Both the position numbers and the translations under genes were made by a program. Under the pieces are notes generated by a model, which saw only the letters and a list, made by a program, of their open reading frames with translations, searched no databases and had not been told where the DNA came from. A stretch of 64,000 bases of DNA. It comes from a phage. Shown here piece by piece: positions 17,381-27,022 of this stretch; within the stretch, counting starts at the first letter, position 1, and each line of letters opens with the position of its first letter. Where the stretch lies: NCBI GenBank assembly GCA_013585095.1, contig GCA_013585095.1_3039.1; one strand, 5' to 3'.

Positions 17381-17761
17381 ATGAAAATCGCTATTTTGGT
17401 TATTGCATTAGGTCTTACTGGTTGTGTATCTCAAGGACCGGTAGTAAATCAGTCTGATGTAGGAAAAATTGTAAACTGTTCAAGCAAATTTTATAATCCT
17501 AATGTCAAGTGTTATAAAGAAGCTCCAAAGCAAACAGTCGAACAAATGCAGGCGAATTTTGACGAAGCTATTCGTCCAGATGAATCTGCTCAAGCATATC
17601 GTAATTCTGATGTAATTACACGCGAAGAAAAAATTGAAAACTACTGCGCCGAAATTTGGGCTAATTGGGCTAATAATTACCAATGGCGTACTGGTAAAAA
17701 TGCTCCGATGGAGTATGTAGTGAATTCTTATAATTCATGTGTAAAAAATTTGACTAAGTGA
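17381..17761 (+). CDS. putative lipoprotein
   Basis: 126 aa; N-terminal MKIAILVIALGLTGC lipobox; Cys-containing mature part. Confidence 0.55.
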   Translation: MKIAILVIALGLTGCVSQGPVVNQSDVGKIVNCSSKFYNPNVKCYKEAPKQTVEQMQANFDEAIRPDESAQAYRNSDVITREEKIENYCAEIWANWANNYQWRTGKNAPMEYVVNSYNSCVKNLTK

Positions 17762-23641: not shown

Positions 23642-24274
23642 ATGATTTATTATATGCACAAAAATCCACCGTTTAAATACGGTAAATTTCCTGATGCACA
23701 ATGTTATAATATAACGCCTGATGAAAATAACCGTGGATATCTTATTGGCACAATTTTTGTAATTGTTAAAGATAACGAAATCGTTGCCTGGGCAGATTTT
23801 AAAGGTACAACATATGATGTTAATCCGGTGCCTTTCACATATTACAATTTAATGGATTTGGCATACGATTATAATTGGTTTAATCATGACACTTTGGCTC
23901 ATATTGAAGGTGTAGGATTTGATATTTCATATTCGGAATACACTTTAAGCCCTATGAGTCGAGCCCATAAAGAACCTGAATATTTTTCATTTAGGAAACG
24001 TGTAAACTTTAAACGCAGCACAGAGTATGTCGGTGGAATCTTTGTTAAAGATAATCGAATTATTCGTATTAATTATCCTTTGAGCGTTAGTCAAAAAGAT
24101 ATTGATGTTGATTTAGATTTCACTGAAAATAATATTAATAATATTGCTTCTGTGTATTTTGGTATCGATCACAAAATTGTAATATGTGGATATGAATTAC
24201 CGTTTGAAGAACAGCCTAAAGTAAAAGTTTCTATTGACGATCAAATTTTTAATGCTTTTATGAATAAAGGTTAA
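23642..24274 (+). CDS. hypothetical protein (T4 61.2 position), internally duplicated
   Basis: 210 aa; two VKDN-containing modules; C-terminal SIDDQIFNAFMNKG shared with next ORF. Confidence 0.55.
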   Translation: MIYYMHKNPPFKYGKFPDAQCYNITPDENNRGYLIGTIFVIVKDNEIVAWADFKGTTYDVNPVPFTYYNLMDLAYDYNWFNHDTLAHIEGVGFDISYSEYTLSPMSRAHKEPEYFSFRKRVNFKRSTEYVGGIFVKDNRIIRINYPLSVSQKDIDVDLDFTENNINNIASVYFGIDHKIVICGYELPFEEQPKVKVSIDDQIFNAFMNKG

Positions 24275-24275
24275 T

Positions 24276-24632
24276 ATGTATAGTTCTGAATTTTCATATT
24301 TAAAAATGGAAAAAATTTCATACGATTTCATAGATGAAAAGGTTTATTACAGTTTCCATGAACCGCGTTTTAATAGTGAGGTTGGGTTTATTGTAGTAAA
24401 AGACAATTTCATTTTAAAGATATATTCGGCATTAAAGGATTTTCACTACGAAAATATTAACCTAAAATTTGATAAAGAAAACGTTCGTAATTGTGCAGTA
24501 ACAATTACAGGAAATAAAGGTACATGTGTTATGCTATCTGATGAAATTAATGATTTACTAAATGATGCAGAAAATATTACTGCGCCATCTATTGATGACC
24601 AAATTTTTAATGCTTTTATGAATAGAGGTTAA
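24276..24632 (+). CDS. hypothetical protein, paralog of upstream ORF (T4 61.1 position)
   Basis: 118 aa; one VKDN module; C-terminal SIDDQIFNAFMNRG. Confidence 0.55.
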   Translation: MYSSEFSYLKMEKISYDFIDEKVYYSFHEPRFNSEVGFIVVKDNFILKIYSALKDFHYENINLKFDKENVRNCAVTITGNKGTCVMLSDEINDLLNDAENITAPSIDDQIFNAFMNRG

Positions 24633-24800: not shown

Positions 24801-25829
24801 ATGTCATCAATACCTTGGATTGATAATGAGTTTGCGTATCGTGCATTAGCTCATTTACCTAAATTCACACAAGTAAATAATAGTTCAACTTTTAAATTAC
24901 GGTTTAGATGCCCAGTTTGTGGAGATTCAAAAACCGACCAGAATAAAGCCCGTGGATGGTATTATGGTGATAATAATGAAGGAAATATTCATTGTTATAA
25001 CTGTAACTATCATGCACCAATCGGAATATATTTAAAGGAGTTTGAACCTGATTTATATCGTGAGTATATCTTTGAAATAAGAAAAGAAAAAGGTAAAAGT
25101 CGTCCAGTAGAAAAACCTAAAGAACTTCCTAAACAACCTGAGAAGAAAATAATTAAATCTCTTCTGTCATGTGTTAGATTAGATAAACTGGCGGAAGACC
25201 ATCCAATTATAAAATATGTAAAAGCTCGTTGTATTCCAAAGGATAAATGGAAATATCTTTGGTTTACAACCGAATGGCCTAAATTAGTTAATAGCATAGC
25301 ACCGGGAACATACAAAAAGGAAATTTCTGAGCCTCGTCTTGTTATTCCAATTTATAATGCTAACGGAAAAGCTGAGTCTTTTCAAGGACGTGCATTAAAG
25401 AAAGATGCTCCACAAAAGTATATCACCATTAAAGCTTATCCTGAGGCAACAAAAATATATGGAGTAGAACGAGTTAAAGATGGTGATGTATATGTTCTAG
25501 AAGGACCTATAGATTCACTTTTTATTGAAAATGGTATAGCTATTACGGGTGGTCAATTAGACCTAGAAGTTGTTCCATTTAAAGATAGACGAGTGTGGGT
25601 TTTAGATAATGAACCTCGTCACCCTGACACTATCAAACGAATGACTAAATTAGTTGATGCAGGAGAAAGGATTATGTTTTGGGATAAATCTCCCTGGAAA
25701 TCTAAAGATGTTAATGATATGATTAGAAAGGAAGGTGCAACCCCTGAACAAATTATGGAATATATGAGAAATAATATTGCCCAGGGGTTGATGGCTAAAA
25801 TGCGGCTATCTAAATATGCTAAGATTTAA
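24801..25829 (+). CDS. 61: DNA primase gp61
   Basis: 342 aa; N-terminal zinc ribbon CPVCGDS..CYNCNYH; TOPRIM-like region. Confidence 0.92.
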   Translation: MSSIPWIDNEFAYRALAHLPKFTQVNNSSTFKLRFRCPVCGDSKTDQNKARGWYYGDNNEGNIHCYNCNYHAPIGIYLKEFEPDLYREYIFEIRKEKGKSRPVEKPKELPKQPEKKIIKSLLSCVRLDKLAEDHPIIKYVKARCIPKDKWKYLWFTTEWPKLVNSIAPGTYKKEISEPRLVIPIYNANGKAESFQGRALKKDAPQKYITIKAYPEATKIYGVERVKDGDVYVLEGPIDSLFIENGIAITGGQLDLEVVPFKDRRVWVLDNEPRHPDTIKRMTKLVDAGERIMFWDKSPWKSKDVNDMIRKEGATPEQIMEYMRNNIAQGLMAKMRLSKYAKI

Positions 25830-26026
25830 ATTAACCCAACCAAAGCAAATGCTAAATCTACGAATGTATCAAGAGTAATTACTGGAATATTAACACCATG
25901 AGCAATAGCAATTGGTGATAAAACAAAATTCCAGAGTAAAATTCCTATCATAGCAGAAATAGTAAAAGCTATACGTTTTTTATTACCTTTTATGGCATTA
26001 ACAAGTGCCATTAATTTTTGTACCAT
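25826..26026 (-). CDS. hypothetical two-helix membrane protein, convergent with gene 61
   Basis: 66-aa ORF; AAGGAGG SD 4 nt before ATG; 3' end overlaps gene 61 stop by 4 nt; fills an otherwise non-coding gap. Confidence 0.5.
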   Translation of the reverse strand: MVQKLMALVNAIKGNKKRIAFTISAMIGILLWNFVLSPIAIAHGVNIPVITLDTFVDLAFALVGLI

Positions 26027-26039
26027 ATGTCCTCCTTGT

Positions 26040-26063
26040 TGCTTTATATATTTATTGTATAAT
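26040..26063 (+). promoter_or_regulatory. MotA-box middle promoter upstream of gene 56
   Basis: TTGCTTTA box, 11-nt spacer, TATAAT. Confidence 0.55.
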
Positions 26064-26097
26064 TAATCTACTAACCCATGAATTGAAAGGAAAAATA

Positions 26098-26616
26098 ATG
26101 GCTTACTTTAATGAATGTGCTCATTTGATCGAAGGTGTTGATAAAGCAAATCGTGCATATGCTGAGAATATTATGCACAATATTGACCCACTGCAGGTTA
26201 TGCTTGATATGCAGCGGCATTTACAGATTCGTTTGGCTAATGATAAACCAGAAACAAATCGTCATCCTGATTCACTTGAAACCGCAGGAGAAGTTCTTGC
26301 TTGGTTGCGAAACCAAGACGATTATATCGCAGATGAAACTCGCGAACTATATACTTCTCTTGGTGGTATGAGTAATGGTGAAAAAGAAGCTTCTGCTGTA
26401 TGGAAACCTTGGAAGAAACGTTATTCTGAAATGCAATCCAAGAAAATTCAAGATTTATCTCCCGAAGATCAGCTTGAAATTAAATTTGAACTGATTGACC
26501 AATTTCACTTTTTCATGAATAAATTTATTGCTCTTGGAATGTCAGCTGAAGAAATCTTTAAACTTTATTACCTGAAAAATGCTGAAAACTTCGCTCGTCA
26601 AGACCGAGGTTATTAA
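26098..26616 (+). CDS. 56: dCTP pyrophosphatase gp56
   Basis: ORF-track 26005 trimmed to MAYFNECAHLIEGVD after GGAAAAATA; 172 aa; C-terminal FKLYYLKNAENFARQDRGY as I recall T4 gp56. Confidence 0.88.
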   Translation: MAYFNECAHLIEGVDKANRAYAENIMHNIDPLQVMLDMQRHLQIRLANDKPETNRHPDSLETAGEVLAWLRNQDDYIADETRELYTSLGGMSNGEKEASAVWKPWKKRYSEMQSKKIQDLSPEDQLEIKFELIDQFHFFMNKFIALGMSAEEIFKLYYLKNAENFARQDRGY

Positions 26617-26816
26617 TGGCTCGTTTAAATAAGCGTCAGCTTAAGAAAGCCCATAAGAAACGTATTGACCAGCTATTTAAAGATTATAACAAGGAGCTCG
26701 TATGTGAGCTCTTAACTAATCAACTTCGTATGGTTGATTGGGTTATAGAAGAAGGTCCTGACGAAATTTTTGTCAGCGAAGAAGCCTTAAAATTAATTAT
26801 AGAGCATTCAAAATGA
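26616..26816 (+). CDS. hypothetical basic protein
   Basis: 66-aa ORF, overlaps gene 56 stop. Confidence 0.5.
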   Translation: MARLNKRQLKKAHKKRIDQLFKDYNKELVCELLTNQLRMVDWVIEEGPDEIFVSEEALKLIIEHSK

Positions 26817-27022
26817 AATTTGATTTCTACGCGTGGCAAAAAGCCGGGAGACCGGCTACTCGAGCATTTGGTTCTGATGGATATAATATTAGAGCCCATT
26901 GGAAATTTAATGCTCCAGAAGATTATTCTCCGGTAATTATTAACGGCGATATTGTTATATTAACTAAAATTGGGTATTTTAACGTTCCGCGAGAATTTAT
27001 TATAAATAATCATGTAATTTAA
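26813..27022 (+). CDS. hypothetical protein
   Basis: 69-aa ORF; contains the soc late promoter at its 3' end. Confidence 0.5.
   Translation: MKFDFYAWQKAGRPATRAFGSDGYNIRAHWKFNAPEDYSPVIINGDIVILTKIGYFNVPREFIINNHVI
27001..27008 (+). promoter_or_regulatory. late promoter (TATAAATA) for soc
   Basis: exact TATAAATA about 30 nt upstream of soc ATG. Confidence 0.7.

Follow-up and report, generated by a model that had tools for sequence, protein, structure and literature searches.

The T-even phages T4 and T2 encode a GATC N6-adenine methyltransferase, Dam, between gene 56 and the primase gene 61. Beside the primase gene, T6 and RB69 have a small open reading frame (ORF), which is labelled dam.1 in T6 (AXN58073) and RB69ORF029w in RB69 (AAP75931). 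In the RB69 protein, Nolan et al. (2006) predicted one transmembrane segment, spanning residues 21-41. Here, we analysed this interval in a stretch of 64,000 nucleotides from a phage contig (GCA_013585095.1_3039.1; NCBI GenBank assembly GCA_013585095.1), which is called the window throughout. The window covers the early genes of a Tequatrovirus, a genus of T4-like phages, and is oriented so that these genes read from the plus strand. Unlike T4 and T2, it has no dam at this locus, and the space between genes 61 and 56 holds a minus-strand ORF for 66 amino acids. This is the same gene as dam.1 and RB69ORF029w, with the same length, position and orientation beside the primase gene. We consider it probable that the interval is a dam-less allele holding a real, conserved and late-transcribed gene for a 66-residue inner-membrane protein.

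An earlier reading, made from the sequence alone (the sequence-only reading), had described genes 61 and 56 as lying only 268 bp apart, with a 66-codon minus-strand ORF between them that overlaps the end of gene 61 by 4 nt, follows an AAGGAGG Shine-Dalgarno (SD) sequence, encodes two hydrophobic segments and is the only minus-strand gene of the early region. The gene coordinates (Table 1) give exactly this spacing, and overlap, SD sequence and hydrophobic segments are all found as described, with both stop codons lying within the 4 shared nt (25826-25829). Using the annotation of the phage teqdroes, we could also confirm that the small ORF is the sole minus-strand gene before the late genes t, 38, 37, 36, 35 and 34, which begin at ~51.6 kb. 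teqdroes is the closest complete genome and stands in for the genome beyond the window; the two are 92.8-97.6% identical over the aligned blocks, which cover all but ~51.6-54.8 kb.

The small protein belongs to a widespread family. It matches the PHROG 2024 profile over its full length (residues 2-66 on positions 1-65 of 65, E 8.2e-31) and is also filed under pVOG VOG1982, a group of hypothetical proteins of the Tevenvirinae. The ORF was found in 693 phage records, in ~500 of them at 90% identity or more, and it is labelled hypothetical protein in hundreds of newer records. At the protein level, identity is 100% to Salmonella phage F13076, ~92-94% to T4 and T6, and ~50% to RB69 and VR26. The sequence-only reading had proposed an alignment against T4, T6 and the RB phages as a check, and indeed the ORF is present in T4, T6 and RB69. 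The same comparison shows that the small gene is no peculiarity of phages lacking dam: in T4 it occupies the 309-bp gap that separates dam from gene 61 (NC_000866 17738-17938), and RB69, T6 and hundreds more have it at their loci. Judged by this distribution, the small gene occurs independently of whether dam is present. The T4 copy is left unannotated in both NC_000866 and AF158101.

In the window, T4, T6, RB69, JK42, VR26, Dhakavirus and Marfavirus, the small gene is convergent with and directly downstream of the primase gene, and in four of five genera the two genes share their last 4 nt (the gene 61-adjacent VR26 copy is left out, and the arrangement is interrupted in the Gaprivervirus RZ by an interposed gene for a homing endonuclease). 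The frame is open at 65-66 codons in the five genera Tequatro-, Mosig-, Gapriver-, Dhaka- and Marfavirus. Within a genus, the ratio of nonsynonymous to synonymous substitution rates (dN/dS) is 0.10-0.25; between genera, dS is saturated while amino acid identity is still ~50%. Variable sites fall mostly on third codon positions, with 7/2/12 sites at the three positions within the genus and 43/19/56 overall. Because the small ORF sits in an intergenic gap, no overlapping gene can account for this pattern, which marks it as a real gene with purifying selection on the protein, as the sequence-only reading had assumed for a small hydrophobic protein. Two subfamilies can be distinguished: subfamily A is found in Tequatro-, Mosig- and Gaprivervirus, and subfamily B forms the second of two tandem copies in VR26 and the sole copy in Dhaka- and Marfavirus. 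The Dhakavirus protein of subfamily B also matches PHROG 2024 (E 6.5e-28), and the residues W32, N33, P38, G44 and P48, a W-N...P...G...P core, are invariant in both subfamilies.

These comparisons bear directly on the possibility that the small ORF is a chance antisense frame picked up by gene callers. AT-rich T4-type DNA is rich in antisense ORFs of 30-100 amino acids, and the length of the small ORF alone is within chance, longer antisense ORFs existing inside gene 61 (one has 101 amino acids); moreover, the curated T4 records do not list it and no experimental evidence for it was found. A chance frame is hard to reconcile with a constant intact length in five genera despite saturated dS, with the third-codon bias, with a conserved SD sequence and promoter motif, and with a pair of paralogues in VR26. 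On these alignments, the conservation of the ORF, its SD sequence and its promoter motif across genera is beyond chance. As far as comparative data can refute the idea of a chance frame, the conservation pattern has already done so, and we regard its probability as practically negligible.

Individual phages deviate from this common layout. VR26 carries both subfamilies in tandem (locus L012, 1995-2401), the second copy being a diverged paralogue, and in RZ (locus L013, 2001-3127) the second copy is missing. In T6 (locus L023, MH550421, 2232-2432), the ATG is replaced by ATT, and the protein is annotated from the internal Met6 onwards, at a length of 61 amino acids; either ATT serves as start codon or a shortened protein is made. 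In the Karamvirus PG7, the position is taken by a same-strand ORF of 94 amino acids, and no member of the small-gene family was found there.

The signals in front of the small gene point to late expression. A strong SD match (AAGGAGG, AAGGAG or AGGAGG) lies upstream of the gene in all genera compared. Further upstream, the sequence-only reading had noticed a late-promoter-like sequence ~22 nt before the ATG, and in our comparisons this element indeed behaves like a T4 late promoter. All five genera, Tequatro-, Mosig-, Gapriver-, Dhaka- and Marfavirus, keep the motif NATAAATA at 16-22 nt ahead of the ATG, in contexts that have otherwise diverged. RB69 and the window share the form AATAAATA, T4 has GATAAATA and Gaprivervirus CATAAATA, and Dhakavirus and Marfavirus have the canonical TATAAATA upstream of the small gene. 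Downstream of the motif, the leaders of T4 and Dhakavirus are near-identical. Among 50 listed T4 late promoters, 32 have a perfect TATAAATA and nine have A at -13, the commonest variant (Geiduschek and Kassavetis, PMC2988020), which is the variant found in the window.

Within the window, the motif WATAAATA is depleted, with 10 sites compared to 25 +/- 5 expected. Five of the 10 precede the start codon of one of the genes soc, t, 36, 34 and the small gene by 18-34 nt; the first four of these genes serve as positive controls for the late-promoter motif. The holin gene t has the very same AATAAATA 18 nt before its ATG. Like the T4 late genes soc and t, the small gene combines the 8-bp motif at 18-34 nt before the start with a short AT-rich leader and a strong SD sequence; it differs from them in being isolated on the opposite strand within ~50 kb of early and middle genes, and in having a promoter that overlaps a middle promoter. 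In T4, early and middle transcripts are all of one polarity and only late ones run either way (PMC2988020). The small gene is oriented against every early and middle transcript, which makes exclusively late transcription most likely.

The middle promoter in question is located in the 72-bp gap between the small gene and gene 56. It is of the MotA type, fits the consensus (a/t)(a/t)(a/t)TGCTTtA at a distance of 12 +/- 1 bp from TAtaaT (Hinton, PMC2988021), and is the counterpart of the T4 promoter P(M) 16.53, with an equal distance of 35 nt from the -10 element to the ATG of gene 56. According to the T4 record, the gene 56 transcript is the primer RNA of origin A, and oriA is marked in the 5' part of gene 56. 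The minus-strand late promoter falls inside the spacer of this middle promoter, so that ~70 bp would serve two genes at two times of infection. RB69 and VR26 retain both promoter elements in slightly different arrangements.

Table 1. Features of the gene 61-gene 56 interval and its surroundings (positions in the window).
Feature	Position	Strand	Remarks
Small gene (dam.1 / RB69ORF029w family, PHROG 2024)	25826-26026	-	66 amino acids
Shine-Dalgarno sequence AAGGAGG	26031-26037	-	4 nt before the ATG (26026-26024)
AATAAATA, predicted variant T4-type late promoter	26049-26056	-	A for T at -13; ends 22 nt before the small-gene ATG
MotA-type middle promoter of gene 56	26040-26063	+	MotA box TGCTTTA 26040-26046, 11-bp spacer, -10 TATAAT 26058-26063
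20-bp gap between two T4-homology blocks	26038-26057		Site of the dam cassette in T4 and ~180 other Tequatrovirus records (blastn, junction sequences)
Gene 61 (DNA primase)	24801-25829	+	Converges on the small gene; 97% identity to its T4 counterpart
Gene 56 (dCTPase)	26098-26616	+	T6 type; only 75% identical to T4 gene 56 (DNA)
Hairpin	25992-26011	+	Inside small-gene codons 5-11
Two small ORFs replacing segF	26616-27022	+	66 and 69 amino acids
gp61.2 (AdfA)	23642-24274	+	Pfam PF23813
ORF directly after gp61.2	24276-24632	+	118 amino acids

On the plus strand, an 8-bp hairpin ATGGCATTAACAAGTGCCAT followed by TAATTTTTGT overlaps the small gene. It is also found in T4. Transcripts of gene 61 could terminate at this hairpin, short of gene 56. 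As a candidate terminator of gene 61 it was rejected: the stem is weak (three G-C pairs), its occurrence is within chance, and it is absent outside Tequatrovirus.

Several observations weigh against a late-transcribed gene for a membrane protein. The hidden Markov model used by Nolan et al. (2006) called no late promoter before RB69ORF029w, and the -13 position is G in T4 and its closest relatives and C in Gaprivervirus, both of which are rarer variants. Neither a transcript or 5' end nor a peptide or mutant phenotype was found for the small gene, and a search of the literature on RB69ORF029w, dam.1, unannotated T4 ORFs and T4 ribosome profiling yielded no paper dealing with it; a T4 multi-omics study counted only the features of NC_000866 and thereby omitted it. 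In view of the ATT codon in T6, some phages may do without the full-length protein. Finally, the protein gave no match in scans of Pfam and NCBIfam at E values up to 10 and matched no solved-structure family.

The convergent arrangement allows a further explanation, in which the functional product is a late antisense RNA that extends from the small-gene promoter into the 3' end of gene 61, pairs with the primase mRNA and shuts gene 61 off late in infection, the ORF being incidental. The small gene is convergent with gene 61 at every locus examined, four genera out of five show the 4-nt overlap of the ends, and a search for a terminator behind the ORF on the minus strand was negative, which makes read-through into gene 61 likely. 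A purely antisense function is at odds with a dN/dS of 0.1-0.25, with conserved protein motifs at saturated dS and with an SD sequence kept in all lineages; the ORF is intergenic, so that constraint from an overlapping gene cannot mimic selection on the protein. An antisense effect is therefore possible as an addition, but as the sole function we consider it highly improbable.

The favoured reading of a protein-coding late gene also rests on the properties of the small protein. All five Lys and Arg residues lie within the first 18 positions (4-18) and include a KGNKKR cluster. Hydropathy analysis gave two hydrophobic stretches, residues 19-42 and 48-66, the second of which carries D53 and D57. 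The protein contains a conserved LWNF..P.A.AHG..P turn and ends in a hydrophobic helix (...AFALVGLI). An AlphaFold2 model, based on a shallow alignment of nine sequences, shows helices at residues 2-12, 16-42 and 52-63 with a mean predicted local distance difference test score (pLDDT) of 77. From these features, the small protein is predicted to be an inner-membrane protein with its N-terminus inside.

Database searches gave few leads to its role. A profile search against 1.84 billion representative proteins retrieved six clusters, all of them small proteins or fragments and none with a name or genomic context: four are near-full-length and of similar size (two were matched to phage copies), accompanied by two or three shorter fragments. 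In a profile search against 5.8 billion proteins, 108 clusters were recovered, all hypothetical except for one named 'Holin' and one plainly mislabelled as 'DNA packaging ATPase'. Using the AlphaFold2 model as query, a Foldseek search of viral models returned only the protein's own family below an E value of 0.001. Two proteins of 63 amino acids, one from a Karamvirus, matched weakly, with E values of 0.06-0.17 and 25-27% identity. Because no named family matches, any role proposed for the small protein is without homology support.

The proteins of T4 that come closest in kind are the holin T, the antiholin RI, Imm and Ac, which share small size and a predicted inner-membrane location with the small protein but have no sequence similarity to it. 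T and RI have a periplasmic domain, which the small protein lacks, as it lacks the charged C-terminal tail of class I and II holins; Imm and Ac are products of early genes. Filing the protein as a holin was rejected, given that no holin family of Pfam or NCBIfam matches and a charged hydrophilic C-terminal tail is missing.

A lysis-control factor in a wider sense, i.e. a holin-, pinholin- or antiholin-like protein or a lysis-inhibition accessory that tunes the triggering of holin T, would correspond to the lysis-timing factor suggested by the sequence-only reading. Small size, a late-type promoter and the membrane prediction all fit, promoter and leader resemble those of gene t in the window (AATAAATA, short leader, AAGGAGG), and a UniRef homologue bears the automated name 'Holin'. 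The first transmembrane segment is also rich in Ala, Gly, Ser and Thr, most so in RB69, a composition reminiscent of signal-anchor-release domains, of which T4 RI has one. The 'Holin' name, however, is a single unreviewed one among more than 100 clusters called hypothetical, with no match to a holin family in Pfam or NCBIfam behind it, and the charges of the protein are N-terminal while it ends in a hydrophobic helix, unlike a typical holin tail. Furthermore, the T4 lysis set of t, e, rI, rIII and spanins is complete and well studied, and the teqdroes annotation lists all of these components. We therefore judge a lysis-control factor to be unlikely.

Under the favoured reading of a late inner-membrane protein, RNA polymerase with gp55, gp33 and gp45 would transcribe the small gene late in infection from the variant promoter AATAAATA, and translation would start from a short leader with a strong SD sequence. 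The amphipathic, Lys-rich N-terminal end would remain in the cytoplasm, one long transmembrane helix (~residues 19-42) would cross the membrane and lead into the conserved AHGVNIP turn, and the short C-terminal hydrophobic helix with its two acidic residues would either rest on the periplasmic face or dip back into the membrane. As to what the protein does, we can only guess at a late accessory function in the inner membrane, for example in envelope integrity, membrane potential or lysis timing, and likewise guess that this function is neither an essential structural one nor one in replication. The late envelope or lysis-timing role has no family membership, motif or published experiment behind it.

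A bolder version of the same idea would see in dam.1 a late effector at the inner membrane that has escaped notice in the T-even phages and is missing from the T4 reference annotation. Such an effector might be a release-prone or hairpin-forming membrane protein that alters the membrane potential or modulates holin T and thus acts on lysis timing or lysis inhibition; it might also protect the envelope of the infected cell late in infection. The interleaving of its late promoter with the middle promoter of gene 56 and oriA might couple expression of the small gene to origin activity. We rate an effector of this kind as distinctly unlikely.

The practical value of these findings is modest, and both the small gene and the dam polymorphism are already known from the databases. 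Nevertheless, the T4 reference annotation (NC_000866, AF158101) misses a gene conserved in at least five genera of T4-like phages, and because of this omission, omics studies and genetic screens that build on it are blind to the gene. The locus would also be a clear-cut example of a late gene set into an early region in the opposite orientation. As its promoter is interleaved with the middle promoter that primes origin A in T4, it provides a compact system for studying competition between promoters at the switch from middle to late transcription.

With respect to dam, the absence noted by the sequence-only reading is real. A tblastn search with T4 Dam detected nothing in the window (best E 0.7). 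The check for a dam homologue elsewhere in the genome, made on the complete teqdroes genome, was negative as well (best E 0.7), and no methyltransferase is annotated there either. The claim that no ORF of the window has methyltransferase motifs also holds: a scan of the long ORFs for [DNS]PP[YFW] gave a single hit, an NPPF in gp61.2, and this protein is not a methyltransferase but the anti-DarT factor AdfA. In a blastn comparison with T4, a first block of 97% identity runs from gene 61 through the small ORF and stops at 26037, and a second block with 75% identity starts at 26058 and continues into gene 56; T4 dam and segF have no counterpart in the window.

A reading of the dam-less layout as an exceptional loss is not supported. 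Most sequenced Tequatroviruses share this layout, and so does T6: the 1.8-kb block of gene 61, small ORF and gene 56 is intact in at least 340 phage records, and a T4-type Dam (at least 90% identity) occurs in ~182. T6 shares the layout of the window (61, small ORF, 56, soc.2-type ORFs, soc) with 95% identity over the stretch. On this evidence, the interval is an ordinary dam-less allele of the T-even 61-56 region, and dam is an accessory cassette, present or absent at exactly this spot. Its absence is normal polymorphism, needs no special explanation and predicts virion DNA without phage-made GATC methylation. In the loci examined from Mosigvirus (RB69, JK42), Gaprivervirus (VR26, RZ), Dhakavirus and Marfavirus, dam was not found at this position. 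The Aeromonas T4-like phage AhFM11 has a dam gene just downstream of the primase gene, which leaves both gain and loss of dam standing as explanations.

Many dam-carrying Tequatroviruses have an additional ORF of 186 amino acids (PHROG 8706) in front of dam, its stop overlapping the dam start. This arrangement was seen at positions 1062-2401 of locus L006 (IMG/VR UViG_2974787500_000001); the T4 counterpart region is NC_000866 ~17,626-17,737, and that of the window is the junction at 26038-26057. T4 retains the last ~80 bp of this ORF, and the lost 540 bp sit between two copies of ATC(G/A)CAAA. By eye only, the protein contains a D-x12-E-I-K motif, and it has a sub-threshold match to the Pfam family DpnII, a GATC restriction enzyme (E 0.0045, 16.8 bits compared to a cut-off of 23). 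No solved-structure relative was found by sequence search, and the ORF between the primase gene and dam in AhFM11 is unrelated to it. As a lead only, dam of the T-even phages may be the methylase half of a restriction-modification-like cassette.

The region downstream of the small gene differs from T4 as well. Gene 56 is 75% identical to its T4 counterpart although its flanks are 97% identical, and downstream of it soc.2-like ORFs are found where T4 has segF. These are the two small ORFs listed in Table 1, the second of which belongs to Pfam DUF7422; T6 likewise has soc.2 and T6ORF029 in the segF position. An exchange of the gene 56 segment among T-even phages that is driven by segF is known, and the pattern in the window fits it.

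A last observation concerns the region upstream of gene 61. The anti-DarT factor AdfA encoded there as gp61.2 was assigned with an E value of 3e-139, and the 118-amino acid ORF directly following it has a match confined to the C-terminal half of AdfA (E 1e-7). In contrast to T4, which has a single 61.2 gene at this place, the window thus has a tandem, in which the second ORF looks like a truncated AdfA paralogue.

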